Shown piece after piece: positions 402-37,007 of a stretch of DNA of 37,007 bases (its first letter is position 1; each line of letters starts with the position of its first letter). A program made the translations under genes and the position numbers. Source of the stretch: a virus (lineage: Duplodnaviria > Caudoviricetes); the IMG/VR virus record IMGVR_UViG_3300022666_000200, positions 1-37,007 of that record, one strand, 5' to 3'. The notes below the pieces were generated by a model. That model had not been told where the DNA came from. It was given only the letters and a program-made list of their open reading frames with translations, and searched no databases.

Positions 402-1748
402 ATGCTTGAGGCGTTGATCGACAGGAAGGCCCCGCCGCAAAACCTCGAAGCCGAGGCCTGCGTGATTGGTTCGATGCTGCTCTCGCCGGAGTGCATCGAG
501 GAGGTTGTTGCGATACTTCCGGACGCCTGCGCCTTCTTCGATCAGATCAACGCCCAGGTGTACCGCCTGATCGTCGCGATGTTCCGAGCAAGGGTGCCTG
601 TCGACACGGTAACGTTCGGCGAATGGACATCGAGGGATTCGTTCCGTGCGGAAGCGGTCGGTTTTGCTCCCACGGAGTATCTGGTCGACCTGTGGAATCG
701 CGTCCCATCAGCCGCCAACGTCATGCACTACGCTCAGATCGTTCGTGAGCACTACCAGCGGCGAACGCTGGCCATGGCTTCTCTGGATGCCAGCAACAGG
801 CTCGCGGGCGAAACGGGGCCCGACGAACTTAAAGAGGCCGTCGGTGATCTGCAAGAACGGTGCGCTTCCACGATGGAGTGGGGGGCTCTCGGCAAGACAC
901 AGAGACTGAGCGAGTTGGCGAAGGTGGCGTTGGAAGCGGGGACGCGATCCACCCGCATCGACTTCGGCCTGCCCTCCCTCGATCGCTTCACGCCGTTCCG
1001 TGGGGAATATCAGATCGCGGGTGCGAGACCGTCTACCGGCAAGACCACGCTGTTGCTTCAGCTCGCGTGGAATGTTGCCTGTCGCGGTGACGCGGTGCTG
1101 TTCTTTTCGCAGGAGATGCCGGCCGGGGATCTGGCTCTCAGGCTGTTGTCGATGCTGTCGGGAATCCAGGTGTTTGACCTGCGCACGGGATCGTATCCGT
1201 CCGAGATGGAAGGCTCGTTGCAATGGGCTCGCGAACAACTGCAGCGGAATGACGACAAGTTGATCTTCGCTCCACGCCAGGCGTCGATTGACAGTATGAA
1301 CGCCGAAGTCAAACGCTTCAGGCGGCAACATCCCACGGCCTCGCTGGTGTGCGTCGACTATCTCCAACTCGTTGACAGCGGCGGTCGGGGTGAAACCCGT
1401 CACGAGCAGCTCGGCCATGTGTCCGCCCAGATGAACGCATGGAAGCATGACGGCTTGGCCGTGGTGGTGGCGAGCCAGCTCAACCGCGATCAGGCTCGGA
1501 CCGACCGCGAACCCCAACTGACGGACCTGCGCGAGAGCGGAAAAATCGAGGAAGACGCTGACATTGTCTGGCTGTTGCACAGAAAAGACCGAAAGCAGTG
1601 TGGCCCGCGCGACGTGAACGTGATCGTCGCGAAAAACAGAAACGGAGCCACTGGAGAAGTTCAACTGGTGCTGGATCCGCGGGCATTTCTGTTCCGGGAC
1701 CCCACGGACGCACTGAAGGGAGCGATTGCAGATGAGTGGGACGGCTGA
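402..1748 (+). CDS. dnaB: Replicative DNA helicase, DnaB family
   Basis: N-terminal PPQNLEAEACVIGSML, Walker A GARPSTGKT, Walker B VDYLQLV, SQLNR, DLRESGKIEEDAD and AKNRNG motifs. ATG 402 follows GAGG. Confidence 0.95.
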   Translation: MLEALIDRKAPPQNLEAEACVIGSMLLSPECIEEVVAILPDACAFFDQINAQVYRLIVAMFRARVPVDTVTFGEWTSRDSFRAEAVGFAPTEYLVDLWNRVPSAANVMHYAQIVREHYQRRTLAMASLDASNRLAGETGPDELKEAVGDLQERCASTMEWGALGKTQRLSELAKVALEAGTRSTRIDFGLPSLDRFTPFRGEYQIAGARPSTGKTTLLLQLAWNVACRGDAVLFFSQEMPAGDLALRLLSMLSGIQVFDLRTGSYPSEMEGSLQWAREQLQRNDDKLIFAPRQASIDSMNAEVKRFRRQHPTASLVCVDYLQLVDSGGRGETRHEQLGHVSAQMNAWKHDGLAVVVASQLNRDQARTDREPQLTDLRESGKIEEDADIVWLLHRKDRKQCGPRDVNVIVAKNRNGATGEVQLVLDPRAFLFRDPTDALKGAIADEWDG

Positions 1749-2982
1749 GTTGGTGCATGACGAGCTGGAGCAGGAGGCAATGGATGAATCGGGGCGGACT
1801 GACGCGACGCTGGAAGACGCGCCGTCTCCGCTGCTGAAGATGCCTATCGACACGCTGACGGATTTCGGCGTGGACTCCGAGTTGATCGCCAAAATCAAGA
1901 GTTACGGCATCGATACGCTCGAAGATTTCTGCGATTCATGGGATGGGCCGGATTCTGTATTGTCCGACACAGACCGATTCGCTCACGACGAAATCGGTTC
2001 CATCAGCGCGGCTTACAACAAGGTTTGCGACGCGGTCGATGCCGGCACACCGGTCGAAGAAGCGGACGTAGCGGGGGCGACGGTTGAAACTCCGGCGGAG
2101 GTTGCTCCTTCAAACCAAGCCGCCGCACCCGTGGACGATCGCGTCGATCATGGCAAGCTGCTCCAGATTCAGGCGGCCGAAGCGGAGGTTGCGGAGGCTG
2201 AGACGGCGTTCGAACTTGCCAAGGCCAGGGCCACGCAGGCAAAGAAGATCTTTGACTCGGCGGTTGACCGTCTTCGCCAGACCATTCGATCACCGTTCCA
2301 GCCGCTACTTCCTGGTCTTGGAACGCCGACGTCCGCGGAGTCTCCGACCGTAGAGGCCGCATCGACGGAAGCCGTTTCAGACGTGGCACCTACCGAGCTG
2401 ACGCCATGGTGGGCGGAGCCGATCGAAGGCCTCAAAGAGTACGGCGTAGCTGAACAGGTCATTGCCAAGCTTCGAGACCACAACGTCACCACTCTCGGGG
2501 AATTCATGGAACAAGTGGATCGGATTGAGAACGAGGAGTGGATTGACGCCATTCGAGATCAGACGCAGTTTGAGACTACGGGGACCGACGACCTGGCAGT
2601 GCTGTACCGGGTCTACAACCAGATCGAGAAGCAGTATGACGTCGACGGTGGTTTGTCCGAGATGAAGGCTTCAAAGGCTGTCGTGGAACAGGCCCCGGCC
2701 TCTGAAACCCCCGAGGCCCAACCCGAAGATGAGGACAATGCCTGGCGCTTCGAGAAGCTGGAAGTGCTTCTGAACTACGGCGTCAAACCTCGAACTATCG
2801 AACTGATCAAGCTCGCCGACTTCTCGCCTGAGACGTTGGGTGACGTTGCCACGTGGTTCGCTGCGAAGCCTGGACGGAGTTGGACCAGCATCCGTGGCAT
2901 CGGTTCGGGTCAACAGCAAATCCTTGAGGACGCGCAGGAGCAGTACTTCGCGGACCGGAAACAGAATTTGGGGAATCCATGA
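1732..2982 (+). CDS. Acidic protein with three helix-hairpin-helix (RNAP alphaCTD / NusA-AR-like) repeats and a central coiled coil
   Basis: Repeats PIDTLTDFGVDSELIAKIKSYGIDTLEDF, PIEGLKEYGVAEQVIAKLRDHNVTTLGEF and KLEVLLNYGVKPRTIELIKLADFSPETLGDV...IRGIG. RBS GAAGGGAG precedes ATG 1732. Confidence 0.65.
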   Translation: MSGTAELVHDELEQEAMDESGRTDATLEDAPSPLLKMPIDTLTDFGVDSELIAKIKSYGIDTLEDFCDSWDGPDSVLSDTDRFAHDEIGSISAAYNKVCDAVDAGTPVEEADVAGATVETPAEVAPSNQAAAPVDDRVDHGKLLQIQAAEAEVAEAETAFELAKARATQAKKIFDSAVDRLRQTIRSPFQPLLPGLGTPTSAESPTVEAASTEAVSDVAPTELTPWWAEPIEGLKEYGVAEQVIAKLRDHNVTTLGEFMEQVDRIENEEWIDAIRDQTQFETTGTDDLAVLYRVYNQIEKQYDVDGGLSEMKASKAVVEQAPASETPEAQPEDEDNAWRFEKLEVLLNYGVKPRTIELIKLADFSPETLGDVATWFAAKPGRSWTSIRGIGSGQQQILEDAQEQYFADRKQNLGNP

Positions 2983-3043: not shown

Positions 3044-3442
3044 ATGCGTGGCTTAACGATCTGTCAACCATACGCGAGCCTGATCGTTCAAGGCGACAAG
3101 CCCGTCGAGAATCGAGGTTGGTACACGACCTACCGTGGTCCGCTTGTGATTCATGCTGGAAAGTCGAGGGATTGGCTCCCCACCTGTCCAGAGTTTCGTG
3201 GCACCCTCGTGTTCGGTGCTGTTGTCGGGGTGGCCGAACTGTATGACTGCATGCTCTATGAGCGACTGCCTGTGGATCTACGATCGCACAAGCACGCTGT
3301 CGGACCATGGTGTTGGTTGCTGCGAGATGTACGACGCATCGAACCGATTCAGTGGTCTGGAGCCCAGGGCCTATGGAACGTTCCCGCAGCGCTCGAGGCG
3401 AGGATCAATGCGATGCTCATGGAGGTGACGATTCGTGGGTGA
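3044..3442 (+). CDS. ASCH domain protein
   Basis: MRGLTICQPYASLIVQGDKPVENRGW...YRGPLVIHAG and C-terminal GAQGLW are typical of ASCH. GGAG RBS. Confidence 0.9.
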   Translation: MRGLTICQPYASLIVQGDKPVENRGWYTTYRGPLVIHAGKSRDWLPTCPEFRGTLVFGAVVGVAELYDCMLYERLPVDLRSHKHAVGPWCWLLRDVRRIEPIQWSGAQGLWNVPAALEARINAMLMEVTIRG

Positions 3443-4187
3443 GAGCACGCGAATTCCGTGGACGGATCACACGTTCAACATCGCGTGGGGATGCACACCA
3501 GTCTCGGAGGGTTGCCAGAACTGCTACGCCAAGACACAGGCCGAACGGTTCGGCTTCGATGTGTGGGGACCGGACAAACCTCGTCGTACATTTGGTCAGA
3601 AGCATTGGCGGGAGCCGTTGAAGTGGAACGCGGCTGCAAAGGCCGAGGGACGGCGGCACCGCGTCTTCTGCTCATCGATGTGCGACATCTTTGAGAGCCA
3701 CCCGACGATCTATGATGAGTTGGGGAAGTTGTGGGCGGTGATTCGGGCAACTCCATGGCTCGACTGGCAACTCCTGACCAAGCGCCCTGACTGGATGAAG
3801 ATCAGGCTTCCATTGGGCTGGGGAGATGGCTGGCCGAATGTGTGGCTTGGAACGACGATCGAGAGCAGTCGCTATGCCCACCGAGCCAACTACCTGAGAA
3901 GAATCCCTGCCGTTGTACGGTTCATATCGTGCGAACCTGCCCTTGGGTCATTGTACGCTGTCGATCTGAAGGGCATAGATTGGGTCATCTATGGAGGCGA
4001 ATCTGGCCCGCAATTCCGACCCCATCAATTGGAGTGGGCTCGAAATCTGAGGCGTTGGTGCCAGGCTAGCGGCGCGGCGTTTTTCTACAAGCAGGGTAAC
4101 GGGCTGAAGGCCGGAACCGATCCAATGCTTGACGGAGAGGTGATCCAGGAGTGGCCGGTTCCTCGGCTCGTGGAGGTGACGACGTGA
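3435..4187 (+). CDS. DUF5131 / phage Gp37-Gp68 family protein (radical-SAM-like Cys motif)
   Basis: TRIPWTDHTFN, GCTPVSEGCQNCYA, RVFCSSMCDIF, LLTKRP, RFISCEP, WVIYGGESG and FFYKQ motifs. Confidence 0.93.
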   Translation: MGESTRIPWTDHTFNIAWGCTPVSEGCQNCYAKTQAERFGFDVWGPDKPRRTFGQKHWREPLKWNAAAKAEGRRHRVFCSSMCDIFESHPTIYDELGKLWAVIRATPWLDWQLLTKRPDWMKIRLPLGWGDGWPNVWLGTTIESSRYAHRANYLRRIPAVVRFISCEPALGSLYAVDLKGIDWVIYGGESGPQFRPHQLEWARNLRRWCQASGAAFFYKQGNGLKAGTDPMLDGEVIQEWPVPRLVEVTT

Positions 4188-4411
4188 GCGACCATGAGCC
4201 TCGGGTGGGCGATGTCGTGTGGCACGTGACGGCTCAGGCCGCACCGCGGCTGTGTGTGGTTCGCGTCTGTGAGGATGGGTCTGAAGACATCCGGCTCGGG
4301 ACGATTCGCGAAAGCGGACCCTCATGGCCGGCCCGACGTGTGGACGTTCGACTGGCAGGCATCCTCTCTCCCGGTGGCGAGATCGTGCATTGGAACGTGA
4401 ACCATGGCTGA
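4184..4411 (+). CDS. Small hypothetical protein
   Basis: GTGA overlap with the upstream stop, GGAGG RBS, and it fills the gap in the operon. Confidence 0.6.
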   Translation: MSDHEPRVGDVVWHVTAQAAPRLCVVRVCEDGSEDIRLGTIRESGPSWPARRVDVRLAGILSPGGEIVHWNVNHG

Positions 4412-4892
4412 TGGTACAGCGAAGAAGTTTGACAACGGGAAGACCCGCCTTGATTTGCTGCCGGTCGGGCCGCTCCGGGATGTCGCGGACGTCCTTGAAA
4501 GGGGTGCCGAGAAGTACGGACCGCAGAACTGGCTCAAGGGTCTGCAGTGGTCTCGATGCTATGCCGCCACGTTGCGGCACTTGATGGCGTTCTGGGAGGG
4601 CGAGGATCTGGATCCGGAGACTGGTCTTCCACACCTCGCCCACGCTGCGTGCGACGTGCTCTTCCTGCTGCAATGGCGTCGTACCCACCCAGAACTGGAC
4701 GACCGTGTGAGGCATGCAGAAATGGACCCGCGCGACGGGGTTAGGAGGATAACACCAGATGAACGATCAGATCATGGAGGGTCTGCAACGCATCGACCGG
4801 GCGGCGGCGGAACTGCTCGAGTCGGCCGAGGCACCGTGGATGCGAGGCGTCCTTCATCAACCCAACGATCCAGACGGCCTGCCGACGGCTGA
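4404..4892 (+). CDS. dATP/dGTP diphosphohydrolase domain protein (DUF5664-like)
   Basis: KFDNGKTRLDLLP, GAEKYGPQNWLKG, AATLRHL, GEDLDPETGLPHLAHAAC. The last ~45 codons overlap the next gene and look non-conserved. Confidence 0.88.
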   Translation: MADGTAKKFDNGKTRLDLLPVGPLRDVADVLERGAEKYGPQNWLKGLQWSRCYAATLRHLMAFWEGEDLDPETGLPHLAHAACDVLFLLQWRRTHPELDDRVRHAEMDPRDGVRRITPDERSDHGGSATHRPGGGGTARVGRGTVDARRPSSTQRSRRPADG

Positions 4893-5244: not shown

Positions 5245-5916
5245 ATGGATACGTGCGTACACCCCGCCGAACACAACCGAACGTCGCTCCGCCTCGAATG
5301 GATTGAGGCCGGATCGCTGTCACCCAACCCCATGAACTGGCGTCGGCACCCGGAGGCTCAGAAGCAAGCCCTCCGATCAGTGCTTGCCGATCCTGAAATC
5401 GGCTGGGCCGGGGCCCTCCTGTTCAACGAGAGAACGGGGAGACTCATTGACGGTCATGCCAGGAAAGAGGTTTCAGATCCGAACGCCCTTGTTCCAGTCC
5501 TCGTGGGTTCGTGGTCAGAAGAGGCAGAGCGAAAGATACTCGCCACCCTGGACCCCATTTCGGCCATGGCAGAGGCGGATGCCGCGATCCTCAAGCAACT
5601 ACTCGAAATGGCGGACGTTGGCGCCATACCACTTGAGGACATGTACGGAATCTCCATCCCAGAAGAGGGCGGACTCGAGAAGAGCCCGTCCGGCGAACTA
5701 GTTCGCAAGTTCGGTGTTCCACCCTTCTCCATCTTCGACACGCGGCAGCAGTACTGGCAGGACCGAAAGCGGCTTTGGCTATCGCTGGGCATCCAGAGCG
5801 AGTTGGGCCGTGAAGCCCCTCCGGGCGGCGGAGGCGGCATCTATGGGCGAAAGGGAATATCGGCCAAGTACAGGGAGAAGTACAAGGGTGTCAGGAAGGC
5901 AAAGCCAAAAGCATGA
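5245..5916 (+). CDS. ParB/Srx-like N-terminal domain protein carrying the N-terminal part of a methyltransferase module
   Basis: LSPNPMNWRRHP, GWAGALLFNERTGRLIDGHAR, LATLDPIS. C-terminal FGVPPFSIFDTRQQYWQDRKRLWLSLGIQSELGR. Confidence 0.8.
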   Translation: MDTCVHPAEHNRTSLRLEWIEAGSLSPNPMNWRRHPEAQKQALRSVLADPEIGWAGALLFNERTGRLIDGHARKEVSDPNALVPVLVGSWSEEAERKILATLDPISAMAEADAAILKQLLEMADVGAIPLEDMYGISIPEEGGLEKSPSGELVRKFGVPPFSIFDTRQQYWQDRKRLWLSLGIQSELGREAPPGGGGGIYGRKGISAKYREKYKGVRKAKPKA

Positions 5917-6724
5917 CGGCGTTTCGGCCGGCCTCACGTACGGGGCGTTCGGCCCACAGTTCCAGGCGCCGGACTGCGGGACGAGCATCTTCGACCCCGT
6001 GCTGTGTGAGGTGTGCTATCGTTGGTTCTGCCCCGAGGGAGGGCATATCTTCGACCCGTTTGCCGGCGGCTCCGTCCGCGGAATCGTCGCGGGGTTTCTC
6101 GGCTATCGGTACACCGGAATAGAACTCCGCCCGAAGCAGGTTGAGGCAAACAAGGTCCAGGCCGAGAGCATCGCCAAGGTCAACCCGGACCTCATCATGC
6201 CGCGTTGGGTCATAGGCGACAGTTCCAAGATGCGAGACCACCTGGAGCCGGCCGACAGCGGCTTCGACATGATCTTCACCTGCCCACCTTATTTCGATCT
6301 TGAAGTGTACTCGGACGACCCGCGGGACGGATCGACGATGCACGAATACAACGAGTTCATCGAATGGCTTACTGCAATCGTAAAGGCTTCCGTCGGTAGA
6401 CTCGCGGAAAACAGGTTCGCCGCCGTGGTCATCGGAGAGGTGCGTGGGAAGGACGGGGCATACGTCAACCTCGTTGGCGATGTTACACGGGCATTTATAG
6501 ACGCCGGCATGGCATACCACAACGAGGCGATCCTCATCACACCCGCATGCACCCTCCCCCTGCGAGTAACAAGCCAGTTTCCCAGGGGCAGGAAGTTGGG
6601 TAAATGCCACCAGAACGTACTCTTCTTCTGGAAAGGCGACGTTCGGAAGATCGGTGATGTTCTGGGGCCTGTGCCGCTTCCTGAAGCGATAGACAGCAAG
6701 ATACAGAGTGGTGACGTCGCATGA
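5843..6724 (+). CDS. DNA amino-methyltransferase (N4-C/N6-A type)
   Basis: GTSIFDPVLCE, SAM-binding FDPFAGGS, catalytic-type TCPPY and HQNVLFF. Start is uncertain: ATG 5843 behind GGAGG, or frameshift fusion to the upstream ORF. Confidence 0.88.
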   Translation: MGEREYRPSTGRSTRVSGRQSQKHDGVSAGLTYGAFGPQFQAPDCGTSIFDPVLCEVCYRWFCPEGGHIFDPFAGGSVRGIVAGFLGYRYTGIELRPKQVEANKVQAESIAKVNPDLIMPRWVIGDSSKMRDHLEPADSGFDMIFTCPPYFDLEVYSDDPRDGSTMHEYNEFIEWLTAIVKASVGRLAENRFAAVVIGEVRGKDGAYVNLVGDVTRAFIDAGMAYHNEAILITPACTLPLRVTSQFPRGRKLGKCHQNVLFFWKGDVRKIGDVLGPVPLPEAIDSKIQSGDVA

Positions 6725-7272: not shown

Positions 7273-8617
7273 CGGCCCAACGCCTCGATGGACACCCTTG
7301 CGATACCACCCAGTGCAACACCGGCTGCAAACCATTCGCCTGCGCCGTCGGGAGGGCCTGCCCTTTCCGCACATCGCGTACGTCTGGGCCGGGCGCCGCA
7401 GCGGCAAGACCGAGATCCTCAAACGCGAGGTCGTCATGGCGTCGTGCGAGCCCAAGCCGTGGCCCAATCCGCGGTACTTTCTTGGGGGGCCCACCCATGA
7501 TCAGGCGAAGGCCATTTTCTGGGACGACCTCAACCGACTGGTTCCGTCCGGATGGGTTCGCAAGCGGAGCGATTCGGAGCTGTTCGTACGCATGGTGTGG
7601 GGGGCGGAAATCCACGTGTTGGGGCTCGACAAGCCGGCGAGGATGGAGGGACCGCCGTGGGACGGTGGCGGAATCGACGAGTCTTGCGACCAGAAGTTGA
7701 AGGTATTCGAGAAGTCGGTCTGGCCGGCAGTGGCTGACCGTAAGGGGTGGGTATGGCGTGTGGGCGTGCCCAAACGGGACGGCCCTTCGTCGCTGGAGTT
7801 CCGAGAGAAGTGTGAGGCGGCAGAACGCGGCGAACTCCCCGATGCGGAGGCGTTCCATTGGAAGTCGGCCGACGTCCTGGATAAGGCGACCATCGACACC
7901 TATAGACGTACGATGGATCCGAAGACGTTTCGCGAGCAATTCGAGGCCGAGTGGGAGACGGCCAGCGGCCTGGTCTACTATGCGTTCGACCGGAAGCTCA
8001 ACGTCCGGCCATGCTGCTACGATCCGACGCTGCCCATCCACGTCGGTTCAGACTTCAACATGAACCCGATGGCCTGGGAGTTGGCGCAGGACAAGCCCGG
8101 GTCTCAGCAGACCCGTCTAGAGGTGTTCGACGAACTCTACGTCAGGGACGCCAACACCGAGCAGACGCTTGACCTGCTGTTCAGCCGCTACCCCAACCAC
8201 GCCGGAGGCTGGCATTTCTACGGCGACGCGACAGGCCAGGGGCGTCGCACGTCGGCAAGTCAATCGGACTACCAGTGGATCCTGAACGACCGCCGATTCG
8301 AGAAGGCCGGACGGTCTGTGCACTATCCGGCATCGAATCCGAGGCAGCCCGACCGATACGCCAGCGTCAACGCCATGCTCCGGAACGCCCTGGGCGAGGC
8401 GAGGCTCATCATTGATCCGAAGTGCGTCCATCTGATCCAGGACCTGGACTCCGTAACCTATTCCGAGGGGACCCGTGAGGCCTCGAAGGACGTACCGTGG
8501 TTGACGCACTCCAGCGACGGCCTGGGCTATATGGTGCACTGGATGTACCCGATCTGGTCGGCGGCGAACGACGAACCGCCCAACCCCAACTCACGCTTCG
8601 GCGTGGGTATCTACTGA
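7262..8617 (+). CDS. terL: Terminase large subunit
   Basis: Walker A AGRRSGKT, GPTHDQAK, Walker B GIDE, FREQFEAEW, nuclease GSDFNMNPMA, YGDATG and HSSDGLGY motifs. Confidence 0.95.
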   Translation: MTGSGPTPRWTPLRYHPVQHRLQTIRLRRREGLPFPHIAYVWAGRRSGKTEILKREVVMASCEPKPWPNPRYFLGGPTHDQAKAIFWDDLNRLVPSGWVRKRSDSELFVRMVWGAEIHVLGLDKPARMEGPPWDGGGIDESCDQKLKVFEKSVWPAVADRKGWVWRVGVPKRDGPSSLEFREKCEAAERGELPDAEAFHWKSADVLDKATIDTYRRTMDPKTFREQFEAEWETASGLVYYAFDRKLNVRPCCYDPTLPIHVGSDFNMNPMAWELAQDKPGSQQTRLEVFDELYVRDANTEQTLDLLFSRYPNHAGGWHFYGDATGQGRRTSASQSDYQWILNDRRFEKAGRSVHYPASNPRQPDRYASVNAMLRNALGEARLIIDPKCVHLIQDLDSVTYSEGTREASKDVPWLTHSSDGLGYMVHWMYPIWSAANDEPPNPNSRFGVGIY

Positions 8618-8631
8618 CGGAGAATCGAACG

Positions 8632-9978
8632 ATGCCACTGATGAATCGAATCCGACGGATGCTGGCCCGAACCCTCGTCGACGCGCCGCTGCCGGCGGGA
8701 GACGGCGAACGCACCGGGTCTCAAACCGCATCCGGCGGTTCCGGACAGTCCGGGGGCAAACGCAGCCGCGGCGACCTGGCCCGCTATCGACAGATGCGTC
8801 GGAACCCGACGATCGCCCTCGCCAGGGCGGCCAGTCTCGCACCGATCCGGCTGCACAAATGGGCGTATACGGGGCCGGACGCCCCGGACGACATGATCGC
8901 GTTCGTGCGCGGGGTGATGGAACCCATGGAATCCGGGATCGTCAAGAACGCCCTGTACGCCGTGGACTACGGTTTCAAACCCTTCGAGAAGGTGTGGGCG
9001 CGAGACGACAACGGGCGGCTGGTCTACGAACGGATCAAGCCTCTGTCGATCGAGAAGTCCGAGCTTCGGCTCGACGCGAACGGCTTCGCTGGCATCAAGC
9101 AGGAGGACGTCATTCTGACGCCCGAATACGCTTGGTGGTTCACGCACGACCAGGAGGATGACGACTACTTCGGCCAGAGCCGCCACGAGAACATCCGCCC
9201 CGAATGGGAGGCGTGGTGCCAGTTGCGATCCAAGACCCTTCGCTATGCGGACCTCGCGGCCGGTGCCAAGCCGATCGTCGAACACCCTGGCGGTATGTCG
9301 CGGGATCGCAACGGGGCGGAGAGGCCGGACTATCAGATCGCCGAAGGCGTCGTCAACGACCTGTCGGCCGGCAAGGGCGTCTACATGCCCAACAGCCTGG
9401 CTCAATATGCCAAGGACCTTCTGAACCGCGGCGTGGACGTCTCGAAGTTCAAGGCGTGGAACATCTCGTTCCTCGAGCCGAAGAACACGCACGGCGATGA
9501 GTTCATCGCGATGATGCGGCATTTCGAGAGCCTCATGCTCCGCGGCTGGCTATGCCCCGAGCGAACGGTGACGGAGGGGCAGTACGGAACGAAGGCCGAA
9601 TCGGAGGCCCAGGCGGACGTCGCGATGCAGGCCGCCCAGGAGCTTCTGAACGAGTTGATTGACGGTGTGAACACCGGCCTGGTCCAGCCGCTTCTGGTCT
9701 ACAACTTCGGCCCCGAATTCCGGAACGCTGTCCGCGTGGAAGCCAGCCCATTGCAGGACCAGAAGCGGGCCGTGCTCGAGAAGATCATGGCGGCCCTATT
9801 GGCCTCGCCCGATACGGCCAGGCTGTGGTTGGACGTTGATGCGGCGATGGATTACCTGGGCCTGCCGAAGGTGCAGGCCGTGATCGACAACACCGAACAG
9901 GACGACGCGGACGGCGACAATCCGGAAGAGGTCGCCGACGCCATCCTGCGATATGGCGACGCACGGGGGGCAGCGTGA
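8632..9978 (+). CDS. Portal protein (DUF935 / Mu gp29-like)
   Basis: Follows terL. ALYAVDYGFKPFEKVW, DYFGQS, GQYGTKAESEAQ and LVQPLLVYNFG resemble Mu-like portals. GGAG RBS. Confidence 0.85.
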   Translation: MPLMNRIRRMLARTLVDAPLPAGDGERTGSQTASGGSGQSGGKRSRGDLARYRQMRRNPTIALARAASLAPIRLHKWAYTGPDAPDDMIAFVRGVMEPMESGIVKNALYAVDYGFKPFEKVWARDDNGRLVYERIKPLSIEKSELRLDANGFAGIKQEDVILTPEYAWWFTHDQEDDDYFGQSRHENIRPEWEAWCQLRSKTLRYADLAAGAKPIVEHPGGMSRDRNGAERPDYQIAEGVVNDLSAGKGVYMPNSLAQYAKDLLNRGVDVSKFKAWNISFLEPKNTHGDEFIAMMRHFESLMLRGWLCPERTVTEGQYGTKAESEAQADVAMQAAQELLNELIDGVNTGLVQPLLVYNFGPEFRNAVRVEASPLQDQKRAVLEKIMAALLASPDTARLWLDVDAAMDYLGLPKVQAVIDNTEQDDADGDNPEEVADAILRYGDARGAA

Positions 9979-30581: not shown

Positions 30582-31433
30582 CTATTCCCACCGTATGCGG
30601 AAGGGGTAGTCCCTGTTGCCGGCGTGCGTGAAGATCCGCATGGTCAGAGTCACTTCCGGCGATGTCGGAGACTCCATGAAGGTGAAAGCGAAATCCAGGA
30701 ATTGGTCAGAGAATAGGTTGGTGCGGACAAGGTTGGTGAGCGTGTAGAGGTACTGGCCCGTTGGCGGCACTATCCTGGTCTCATTCAGATCTTCAGATGG
30801 AGCGAACCTAAGGTAATCCTCGGGTGTGATCAGGCTTACTGTAAGGTCACCGGGGGCGAAGGTGCGGCCGGAGCCATTGTGAATCATGCATGAGAACCAT
30901 GTCGATGCCTTCGGGCTTGCGACGACCAAGTCGTTTGACGAGATGTCTTGCCGGTTCACATAGACGTCAAGGTCTATCTTCCCGGCCTGTCCATCCTTCG
31001 TCGGATTCTCCACGCACCAGCGAATTCGTTTGGTCAGCTCCGGCAGCAGGATATCCTTGATCTGCCCCTTGTAGACGATGTGGGGGAAGTGTTTGAGATC
31101 GAACGGAATATCGTCTACCGTTCGCGCCAGCAGGACCGTTTCCTTGCCGAGGGCGTGAGCATAGCCGATCTCGTAGAAGACATTCGCGTTCTGTCCTGTC
31201 ACATCTGCAACGATGAAGTCCGCCTTGGCGATCTGGTTGTAGATCCGCTGCAGAATGGTACCCGTGAAATTCTGTTTGTCCACACGTTCGCAATACGCAC
31301 CTGCCTGCTCACACGCCTTCTTGATGCCAAGCTCGTAGATGTCATTGAACTCCTCTTTAAAGGGCATCAGGACGAAGCAGAAGGGTTTCGGCCTAGTGGT
31401 CATGGATTGTGTTGGTTCTGGCTTGTCGGACAT
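30582..31433 (-). CDS. Nucleoside 2-deoxyribosyltransferase-like / TIR-like domain protein (moron)
   Basis: FCFVLMPF, ERVD, IAKADFIVADVTGQNANVFYEIGYAHALGK and IPFDLKH. GAGGAG RBS. It is the only convincing antisense gene in the prophage. Confidence 0.88.
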   Translation of the reverse strand: MSDKPEPTQSMTTRPKPFCFVLMPFKEEFNDIYELGIKKACEQAGAYCERVDKQNFTGTILQRIYNQIAKADFIVADVTGQNANVFYEIGYAHALGKETVLLARTVDDIPFDLKHFPHIVYKGQIKDILLPELTKRIRWCVENPTKDGQAGKIDLDVYVNRQDISSNDLVVASPKASTWFSCMIHNGSGRTFAPGDLTVSLITPEDYLRFAPSEDLNETRIVPPTGQYLYTLTNLVRTNLFSDQFLDFAFTFMESPTSPEVTLTMRIFTHAGNRDYPFRIRWE

Positions 31434-34638: not shown

Positions 34639-36414
34639 TCAGTTCTTATACTTGTTCTCTACCCGAACAAACGGAGTCGCGATCCGCTCGACCGCCCAAG
34701 GCTTTGGTGAATAGGGCAGGTCGAACTGTTCGTGTCGGATGTTGCCCTGCACATTCATTTCGGCGACCGTTTTGTAAGCCGATATGGCCTCTTCTCTCCT
34801 CCCCATCAGGTCCAGCATATGACCTTGCCATACGAGGGCCAGAGCGGAAGAAAACACGTCCTTCTGTGTCTGTAGCTTCTCCGACATCCTCTTGAAAACC
34901 TCAAGCGCGTCCTCGTAGCGTTTCACGTCGTACAGGGCGAGGCCCACTTTGAAGAGCGATTTGGAATCGAGTTCGGTCAGCCACTTGTCCGAATAGGCCT
35001 TGGCAATCTTCTCGTTCGAGCCTCGACCATACCCGGAACGGGTTACGAACTCTTCCGCATTCAGCGGTGGCGGCGGGACGTCAGCGGGGAGGTCCCGCCT
35101 GAAGCTGTTCGGGTCTGTCATGTGCCGCCTGTAGGTGTTGCCCACCCGGTACCACTTCCCGTCAGAATAGACAAACGCGTGCATGTGATCTCGCATCATG
35201 CTGCCCGGCCGTGATACAAAGATGGGGTGCAGACAGCCGTTCGACGGGGCGTCGGGCCACGCGGGCGTGCTGAGGAACGTCATATTGTCCACAAAGTGCT
35301 TGCAGCGCCAGCGCCATTGCTGGTCGGCATCGGTTCTCGTTTTCGTGGAAGTCCACCCCGCCACGTCCGCCTCGAGCTTCTCCTGCTTTGTGCTGTCCTC
35401 TGTGAGTGAATCCACGCTGGAGTTGACGTAGAGAGCCTTGTCCCGTTGGGCGATGGCGCAGCACCATGTGAGCAACGCTCGAACCGGTGTGCTCTGGTCA
35501 CAGTATCTGGCGCCGGAGCAGATCTTCGCCTTCTCGCGTTCGTACTCCTCGGCCAAGGCGGCGTCTCGCTCGTTCCGCAAACCGCGATATTCCGGTGGAA
35601 CATCGGCGAAGGTCGTGCCGTCCCGCTCCGGCCACAAAAAGGCAACGACGCCATCTGCACCTTCCCTGCCGTCAAAGTGTGTGCGGATCGTGACGGCCGT
35701 ACGGCCGTCGACCTGATCGACCGCGACAGGCCGAGGGAAGGCGTCAAAGAAGATCGCGGACCTGGGCAGGACGAACCGAAAGTAGTTCAGGAAATTGTTG
35801 GAGCCGTTGCACTGCCACACGTACCAGGCCTTTCCCTCTTGCCACATCAAGTCGCGGTAGACTTCAAACCCAGACACTTTGATGAACCGGAATTTCTCTC
35901 CAGGCGGTACGGGATTCGGGAAATGGAGGTGGTAATAGCCGGTCGTCTTGGTGACGGGTTCCAGTTCGAAACGGAGTTCTCTGCCCTCCATGTCATAGTA
36001 CTTGGGGTTCTGGTGAATCCCCATGAGCCCGACGCGGCATTTGTTGCTCGGCGAGGATTCCCTGTTCGGCACTTCGCTGATGCTGGCCAGCTTCCAGAGG
36101 CGGTCGCTCTCGACGTACGACGCTACAACGACGAGGCCATTGATAGGGATTCGTTTGGCCTCCTTCTCCTCTTGGGCGCACTTGTCTATTGCGAGTAGAT
36201 CCTTGACCAGCGGGTTGTCCACCTCGAGCTTGATGGGTGCGCCGGAGGCCAGGGTGGCCTTCTGCCCCGGTGCGATGGTCGTGGTTGCTGAGGGTGTTTG
36301 AACCCTCACCTCCCCCTTTTGCACCGTCACCTCTGTCTTCTCCTGGGCGACTCCGACGAGTGCAAAGAACGACAGGGCAAACGCGGCGCGCAAAGCCTCC
36401 GTCCTGTGACACAT
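34639..36414 (-). CDS. Host secreted protein: FecR C-terminal-like segment, central domains, C-terminal TPR repeats
   Basis: AGGAG RBS before ATG 36414. Signal peptide ending LVGVA-QE, then TEVTVQKGEVRV. TPR-like GLALYDVKRYEDALEVF and GHMLDLMGRREEAISAY. Confidence 0.8.
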   Translation of the reverse strand: MCHRTEALRAAFALSFFALVGVAQEKTEVTVQKGEVRVQTPSATTTIAPGQKATLASGAPIKLEVDNPLVKDLLAIDKCAQEEKEAKRIPINGLVVVASYVESDRLWKLASISEVPNRESSPSNKCRVGLMGIHQNPKYYDMEGRELRFELEPVTKTTGYYHLHFPNPVPPGEKFRFIKVSGFEVYRDLMWQEGKAWYVWQCNGSNNFLNYFRFVLPRSAIFFDAFPRPVAVDQVDGRTAVTIRTHFDGREGADGVVAFLWPERDGTTFADVPPEYRGLRNERDAALAEEYEREKAKICSGARYCDQSTPVRALLTWCCAIAQRDKALYVNSSVDSLTEDSTKQEKLEADVAGWTSTKTRTDADQQWRWRCKHFVDNMTFLSTPAWPDAPSNGCLHPIFVSRPGSMMRDHMHAFVYSDGKWYRVGNTYRRHMTDPNSFRRDLPADVPPPPLNAEEFVTRSGYGRGSNEKIAKAYSDKWLTELDSKSLFKVGLALYDVKRYEDALEVFKRMSEKLQTQKDVFSSALALVWQGHMLDLMGRREEAISAYKTVAEMNVQGNIRHEQFDLPYSPKPWAVERIATPFVRVENKYKN

Positions 36415-36434
36415 GGCTGTTTCTCCTGCGGTCC

Positions 36435-37007
36435 TCAGTGGACCGATACCGTGAATTCCGTACCGAGCGCCTCGATCCTTCCTTGGGGTGTACTTATGAA
36501 GAACGGGCCGTGAGGGCCCTTCAGGTCCGCCGTCACTGTTCCCGAATCGACCCTGAACTCGACTTGCCCATTGAAAGCCTCCAACGACAACGTGCCGTTG
36601 GCTTTGAGCCGGACCGTGTTGTCGCCCTTCAGAGCCAAGCCCAGGGATGAACCGGGCGATGCATGGATGCGGTCTCCCACGCAGATGCGCGTCGATGCCG
36701 CCACTTCCTCCCATATCTTCGCGCCGGGGTGCTTGATCAGGACTGTGCCGGTAACGCTGCAAACCCGAATCGGCGTTACAGTCTCCGGCGCACCAGGTGT
36801 CTGTCGCGACCCGGCGACGATGCTCTGCACATGCGGAGCGCCGGATCGGGATCGGCCCAGCCCCAGCCCGATGGACACCCCGAGGACCAGCAGGAGGCCT
36901 GCCGCTGCGGGAGTCGGCAGCCCAAGGTGCACCGGCCATCGGAAGCTGACTCCCTTGGGTGCCAGGGGCCTGTTATCGAGTACCGGAAGAACCCGGTCTC
37001 GGGCCTC
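36435..37007 (-). CDS. Host FecR-domain anti-sigma-like membrane protein (5' end outside the window)
   Basis: Frame is open to the window edge. TM AAAGLLLVLGVSIGLGL, then VGDRIH, VRLKANGTL and FFISTPQGRIEALGTEFTV. Confidence 0.85.
   Translation of the reverse strand, partial: EARDRVLPVLDNRPLAPKGVSFRWPVHLGLPTPAAAGLLLVLGVSIGLGLGRSRSGAPHVQSIVAGSRQTPGAPETVTPIRVCSVTGTVLIKHPGAKIWEEVAASTRICVGDRIHASPGSSLGLALKGDNTVRLKANGTLSLEAFNGQVEFRVDSGTVTADLKGPHGPFFISTPQGRIEALGTEFTVSVH

Follow-up and report, generated by a model that had tools for sequence, protein, structure and literature searches.

Few phage proteins are described that exploit the β clamp of the bacterial host, and use of the clamp in transcription by bacterial RNA polymerase (RNAP) has been newly shown, for MuC of phage Mu (PMC12867686). 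MuC, grouped with Mor in PF08765, binds specific sites, uses the host β clamp and needs its internal clamp motifs, QHDLF and QPDLF, for late transcription (PMC12867686). In phage T4, the late co-activators gp33 and gp55 are tethered to the clamp gp45 (PMC2988020), T4 using its own clamp and a sigma-like factor. Gp168 of phage Twort likewise targets the β clamp, of which it is reported to block the DNA channel and not the peptide pocket (PMC8565349). Here, we describe a gene located at positions 1732–2982 (+ strand) of a 37,007-nucleotide stretch of DNA (hereafter, the window) that spans positions 1 to 37,007 of IMG/VR record IMGVR_UViG_3300022666_000200, a linear phage record estimated to be 41% complete (CheckV). 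Its 416-residue product, P0001, belongs to a family that shares a predicted coiled coil, a short motif resembling those of clamp-binding proteins and a domain with a predicted fold like that of the RNAP α C-terminal domain (αCTD). Tentatively, we favor the view that proteins of this family assist phage replication by binding DNA while tethered to the clamp.

The family compares with the described clamp users in part only. Its motif variants QPSLF and QLPLF resemble the QPDLF of MuC; unlike MuC, it has a helix-hairpin-helix (HhH) domain, and the Mor domain PF08765 has no match in P0001 nor, among the matches listed, in 45 relatives. The T4 proteins provide a possible working analogy, homology having been neither tested nor seen.

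Architecture of the P0001 Family

When 1.84 billion representatives were searched exhaustively, 45 other matches were found at E ≤ 0.001, 44 of which are true relatives. Four further members were obtained by profile search and eight from viral contigs, and the family set comprises 56 proteins after removal of P0034 (a false match) and P0037 (a near-duplicate of P0017); P0020 is included in the counts over 56 members and left out of the 51-row set used for some of the motif counts given below. A word-index homolog search with P0001 found P0001 alone, and the cultured phage and plasmid records held no relative, save one row at E 0.4. No family gene was met in locus scans of GTDB genomes and metagenomes, three of the four scans having met about 600 candidate stretches, which does not establish its absence there. 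Pfam, PHROGs, and NCBIfam hold no model covering the whole of P0001, and no description of the family was found in a literature search that covered few subscription journals. Two viral clusters of look-alikes in the Atlas, of 185 and 200 residues, scored 0.82–0.88, below the bar of 0.9. Two annotations were rejected as identities: the PmgS-like PHROG matches the domain alone, in 2 of 52 members, and the DUF3701 matches correspond to the same family domain and not to an integrase.

The conserved core of the family consists of a coiled coil, a short [Q/E]xxLF, xxPLF, or LPF motif, a flexible linker and one domain with an intact hairpin. Every member has the Trp-led helical domain, the coiled-coil profile matches 54 of the 56 once each, and the linker leading from the coil to the next domain has a median length of 31 residues (range 10–78). 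The hairpin has the G-h-G form that is typical of HhH motifs binding DNA: among the 56 best domain copies, 55 keep one of its two glycines and all 56 the other, and in 34 a Lys follows. Most members (45/56) have one domain copy, seven have two and four have three; the smallest, of 141–148 residues, are made of the coil, the motif and a single domain. Among 15 extra copies, two visibly keep the hairpin and nine aligned over their first half only. The tree is poorly resolved, and multi-copy members lie scattered over it (nine changes of this label against a shuffled mean of 10.2, with 91 of 500 shuffles as low), at least three of the changes being forced by well-supported branches. The prevalence of single-copy members, this scatter and the rarity of a visible hairpin in the extra copies lead us to regard triplication as a detail of certain lineages. 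In five sequences (P0044, P0010, P0036, P0038, and L012:5470–6666), the core is fused to small modules, namely FtsK-gamma, Rmf/CrpP-like and CXXCXGXG zinc-finger-like segments, the FtsK-gamma DNA-binding domain being that of P0044.

P0001 is among the members with three domain copies. Its gene, first delineated in a sequence-only reading of the window, stands as a single + strand open reading frame (ORF), preceded by a Shine-Dalgarno-like AAGGGAG (1716–1722) 9 bases 5′ of the ATG and overlapping by its start the stop codon of a dnaB helicase gene (297–1748, + strand; Pfam DnaB_C, 3.8e-52). That reading also placed three repeats of about 30–60 residues at 1843, 2419, and 2749, i.e., from residues 38, 230, and 340. 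These are indeed homologous helical domains, of about 70–80 residues each: R1 (residues 33–103; 1828–2040), R2 (residues 226–303; 2407–2640), and R3 (residues 337–412; 2740–2967). The alignment of R1 with R2 gave z 11.5 (0/5000 shuffles as high) and that of R2 with R3 z 6.0 (1/5000), R1 and R3 being weakly alike (z 2.5, 140/5000). The hidden Markov model of the family domain recovered R3 over its full length (i-E 7.2e-17) and the first halves of R1 (0.0027) and R2 (4.7e-8). The repeat pattern initially proposed fits R1 and R2; R3 departs from it by its KL start, by two inserted residues and by its TLGDV end.

An AlphaFold2 model built with a 52-row alignment (mean pLDDT 73) displays the three helical domains, R3 with the highest confidence (pLDDT 96–98), together with low-confidence acidic linkers and one long amphipathic helix (residues 136–189; 2137–2298), which corresponds to the conserved predicted coiled coil of the family (pLDDT 83–89 over residues 141–190). 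The acidic linkers anticipated earlier are thus present, the single coiled coil is predicted, and the HhH-type hairpin of the last repeat is there: G389-I390-G391 (2896–2904), the near-invariant family motif, occurs in R3 only. R1, which precedes the coiled coil, and R2 are degenerate acidic copies devoid of G-h-G; they are probably decayed duplicates, unlikely to bind DNA and dispensable in most of the family. The protein as a whole is strongly acidic (pI 4.19; 83 Asp + Glu, 34 Lys + Arg), a property from which it had been argued that ordinary DNA binding was improbable. R3, the hairpin-bearing repeat, is neutral (10 acidic and 10 basic residues), so the acidity of the whole protein says little about DNA binding by this domain.

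Fold of the Domain and Its Described Relatives

The likeness to the αCTD suggested by the sequence-only reading was borne out by structural comparison. In searches of predicted models against known structures (VIA), an αCTD ranked first both for R3 (Z 7.7, root-mean-square deviation [rmsd] 2.0, 63 aligned residues; next Z 7.6 and 7.6; Rad51-N-type domain 6.2) and for the one-domain relative P0016 (Z 9.1, rmsd 2.1, 63 aligned residues; next Z 8.8 and 8.8; RAD51C-N 7.0). These Z scores are middling, and the αCTD fold was seen for R3 and not for R1 or R2. R2 matched SAM-like structures only (Z 5.6), and neither R1 nor the NusA acidic repeats (AR) appeared among the best 50 VIA rows, which does not exclude them. 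Foldseek aligned an αCTD with a TM score by target of 0.86 at E 0.02, no Foldseek match reaching E 0.001 or better. The family profile matched the Thermus αCTD (4.6e-8) and the N-terminal domain of human RAD51 (1.8e-7) about equally. The curated Pfam score for PF03118 was reached by P0001 neither as a whole nor repeat by repeat, and at least 3 of 45 relatives pass the RNA_pol_A_CTD cut-off among the matches listed. Phage proteins annotated as containing an αCTD are also present in the viral structure library.

The family thus shares with the αCTD (PF03118; 1z3e_B, 4mex_A, 9dvt_A) its predicted fold, over 63–65 residues at Z 7.7–9.1 and an rmsd of about 2, and a flexible linker behind a dimeriser, here predicted. 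Besides DNA, the αCTD binds activators, through its 287 determinant, and sigma region 4, through its 261 determinant. It differs from it by a hairpin of the general G-I-G-x-x-K type, a family-specific Trp at both domain ends and the attached clamp-like motif. The N-terminal assembly domain of α is absent as well: it had no family match in P0001 or the 45 relatives scanned, which have a coiled coil instead. The alignment with the Thermus αCTD was used to map the column that we take, in E. coli numbering, to be that of R265; in the family it holds Arg in 7 of 56 members (including Arg354 in R3 of P0001), Lys in 7 and Gly in 16, and is therefore variable. R265 is the center of the DNA-binding determinant of the αCTD (PMC1874639).

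With the (HhH)2 N-terminal domain of Rad51 and RadA (PF14520; 1b22, 3lda, 8gj9; Z 6.2–7.0), the family shares the K-G-I-x-x-x-K-A hairpin region that underlies the RAD51 profile match. The Rad51-type domain ranks structurally below the αCTD, and a RecA-fold ATPase is absent from P0001 and the 45 relatives scanned. The proposed likeness to NusA AR1/AR2, a related fold, is less firm: R1, acidic and lacking the hairpin, has NusA AR2 as its best PDB sequence match, at a non-significant E of 0.22 over 60 residues, yet no NusA row occurs among 52 family-profile matches, and the domain scans of P0001 found no S1, KH, or other NusA domain. Taken as a whole, the predicted fold is of the HhH or αCTD-like type, and no characterized family covers the entire protein; the profile matches Rad51-N as well.

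The Post-Coil Motif and the β Clamp

The sequence-only reading overlooked a conserved motif lying just after the coiled coil (residues 190–196 in P0001). In family members, LF, LPF, or a close variant follows the coil directly. The published consensus for clamp-binding motifs is Q-phi-x-[LM][FL] or Q-phi-x-[LM]-x-[FL] (PMC11139829). Within 21 residues after the coil, this strict consensus is found in 10 of 56 members, as compared with 17 of 2941 background windows (0.6%) taken from 244 phage ORFs and a maximum of 3 in 1000 shuffles. A relaxed form, [QE]xx[LM](x)[FL], occurs in 24/56 (background 3.4%, shuffle maximum 9) and the hydrophobic core [LM]F or [LM]P[FY] in 44/56 (background 6.6%, shuffle maximum 13); the best-scoring pattern (42/56, background 1.6%) had been fitted to the family itself and is therefore set aside here. 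Both published spacings are represented, LF in 28 and LPF in 10 of the 51 rows, with Gln or Glu three residues ahead of the Leu in 25. The motif is located 9–22 residues from the coil anchor and, in monomer models, in a low-confidence loop (pLDDT 54 for P0001 191–200 and 56 for P0016 81–90). The two spacings and the variable distance from the coil fit a linear docking motif. Assignment of the LPF as a motif like that of the SSB tail was rejected, the motif being internal.

The P0001 version of the motif, QPLLPGL (2299–2319), is an atypical candidate clamp-binding motif; it opens with the same four residues as QPLLIP, the motif solved for MutL of E. coli (PMC6511837). Co-folding of P0001 residues 164–201 with the DnaN of an Isosphaeraceae planctomycete gave weak support, with a score of 0.51 (runs of 0.54, 0.48, and 0.51), the best of three controls reaching 0.02; contacts agreed between runs at 81% or more, with a partner pLDDT of at least 64. 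The mark applied is reached by 116 of 157 solved pairs and 2 of 215 mismatched pairs, and at scores of 0.60 or less by 18 of the 157 solved pairs and both mismatches. On balance, we consider it slightly more probable than not that members of the family bind the clamp in some form.

Genomic Context in Related Phages

Gene context was drawn from eight related viral records, with annotation of selected same-strand ORFs (42, 44, and 30 proteins) and of 63/99 called ORFs of G003/G004. In all eight, the family gene is co-directional with replication and recombination genes. An initiator, helicase, loader, or primase gene lies within 6 kb in six of the eight (one weak, E 5e-4), and a RusA or RuvC-like resolvase gene within two genes in four; a DNA methylase gene is found in all eight and DUF5131 in three. 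In the loci L007 and L006, dnaB is located directly or one gene upstream of the family gene, as in the window. PolA, PolB, and the PolIII α subunit were found in none of the five related records searched for them, two of which are at least 90% complete, and host PolIII and its clamp are thus likely to be used. L006 is the record that carries its own β clamp gene (dnaN, 7873–9066), two genes downstream of that of a family protein with three domain copies. The clamp is about 48% identical to planctomycete DnaN, and the Planctomycetota affiliation of its named nearest relatives is the sole basis, from one relative, for guessing a planctomycete host. Elsewhere in these phages, G004 encodes an Acb2/Tad1 hairpin domain of an anti-defense sponge family (L023:5141–5482, − strand), and G003 carries together genes for a DUF2201 metallopeptidase/VWA protein, DUF6744 and AAA_5 (L019:7036–11476, − strand).

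Proposed Role and Alternative Readings

The clamp-tethered accessory that we tentatively favor draws on observations (the architecture and its conservation, the replication and recombination gene setting, and the lack of a phage polymerase in five records) and on a predicted αCTD-like fold. In such a protein, the coiled coil would dimerise the chain and thereby present a pair of motifs that could fill both pockets of the host β-clamp ring, while the hairpin-intact domain would grip the DNA backbone beside the clamp without sequence specificity. The protein may then hold clamps on new phage DNA and keep host partners off, or alternatively hand the DNA to the products of the neighboring resolvase and methylase genes.

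A number of points weigh against this proposal. As regards the motif, the strict consensus is missed by 46 of 56 members, the QxxLPGL of P0001, P0002, and P0003 fits none of the clamp-motif patterns scored, and Pro before LF (27/51) is commoner than Gln at position 1 (15/51); the motif may serve instead for packing against the oligomer formed by the coil. Besides, a Gln-to-Glu change is reported to lower the affinity of clamp motifs greatly (PMC11139829). The co-fold score falls in a range in which errors are rated to outnumber correct calls, save for guesses that were likely beforehand; the co-fold gave no interface, its clamp was a stand-in, and its pass may stem from similarity to clamp-peptide complexes of known structure. 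As regards the domain, the best copies average a net charge of −3.2 (range −8 to +1), R3 of P0001 has Gln at the position after the hairpin where most members have Lys, and structure searches place the αCTD above Rad51-N and other HhH domains. As regards the setting, contexts are limited to eight records, and only one of these has its own clamp. The end of a replication module is also a common site of late-gene regulators such as lambda Q, and context consequently cannot separate the readings.

The failures of the strict consensus, by P0001 among others, and the greater frequency of Pro before LF than of Gln at position 1 would suit another explanation. In it, the motif is structural or binds a different partner, and the protein acts without the clamp, bridging or coating DNA as an oligomer. 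H-NS and Lsr2-type proteins, built of an oligomeriser, a linker and a DNA-binding domain, are an analogy, and the near-invariant G-h-G hairpin and the coiled coil of 54/56 members agree with it. We hold this explanation to be unlikely, as two motif spacings and a variable distance from the coil suit a linear docking motif, neither strongly acidic linkers nor net acidic domains resemble what is found in DNA-coating proteins, and co-folding with the clamp gave its weak pass. All the clamp-motif evidence is shared by a reading in which the protein is a late transcription co-activator, riding on the β clamp with its αCTD-like domain as a surrogate α tail that contacts upstream DNA and/or sigma region 4, such that late genes would be switched on only on replicating DNA. 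MuC and T4 gp45 with gp33/gp55 are its precedents, the αCTD comes first structurally, and a dimeriser followed by a flexible linker and an αCTD fold mirrors the tails of the α dimer. The R265-aligned column holds Arg in R3 of P0001, and the terminase genes lie about 3.7 kb downstream in the window. No Mor/MuC gene was found in the five related records searched, so the job of late activator is not visibly filled, other late regulators not having been searched for exhaustively. The scarcity of Arg in that column across the family, a hairpin of general HhH type and the lack of a sequence-specific DNA-binding domain speak against this role, and we regard it as rather improbable that these phages, likely of planctomycetes, encode a free-standing surrogate α tail bolted to the host β clamp, in which a dimeric coiled coil would dock on the clamp and αCTD-like domains would reach upstream promoter DNA or sigma on long linkers.

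Less likely still is the function put forward in the sequence-only reading, a multivalent decoy made of αCTD- or NusA AR-like modules and serving to titrate away activators or Nus factors of the host. The structural rank of the αCTD, the relatives that pass the RNA_pol_A_CTD cut-off, the αCTD-annotated phage proteins and the acidic, hairpin-less R1 and R2, with the AR2 match of R1, are all in its favor. It is weakened by the family as a whole: multivalence is confined to 11 of 56 scattered members, whose extra copies seldom keep the hairpin visibly, no NusA row appears among the profile matches, and the conserved post-coil motif is left unexplained. What relatives keep is the G-h-G hairpin and a peptide resembling a clamp motif. 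The family may nevertheless play a part in transcription.

Neighboring Genes and Other Features of the Window

Directly 3′ of the P0001 gene lies a gene with an ASCH domain match (3044–3442, + strand). An ASCH domain is also fused to the family core in the relative P0020, and the fusion and the neighboring gene together hint at a functional link between ASCH and the core. The gene order of the window continues from dnaB and ASCH with DUF5131, a dATP/dGTP diphosphohydrolase domain, a ParB-like gene and a methylase gene, then terminase, portal, and head genes. DUF5131 sits beside the N-terminal domain of the diphosphohydrolase (3435–4892), and L001, L003, and L006 also have DUF5131 close to the family gene; the pair is possibly a nucleotide or DNA modification module. 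The ParB-like (5245–5916) and methylase (5714–6724) ORFs share a stretch that they read in different frames, and they correspond, respectively, to the N-terminal and the C-terminal part of a single PHROG, phrog_498; either the gene is split, or there is a frameshift or an error of assembly. After the structural region, on the − strand, the window encodes a nucleoside 2-deoxyribosyltransferase-like protein (30585–31433) and a 766-residue protein with weak TPR matches (34642–36939).

Significance

αCTD-like domains are common in phages and clamp-binding phage proteins are known; the novelty of the P0001 family lies in their combination. These results are also a warning that an αCTD-like annotation in a phage need not imply a transcription decoy. 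At least 56 divergent members, a compact minimal form of 141–150 residues and the cognate clamp of L006, which makes a natural pair with the three-domain family protein of the same record, render both clamp readings testable with purified parts. Should the less likely co-activator reading hold true, the family would represent a third way of activating transcription through the clamp, built independently of those of T4 gp45 and MuC.

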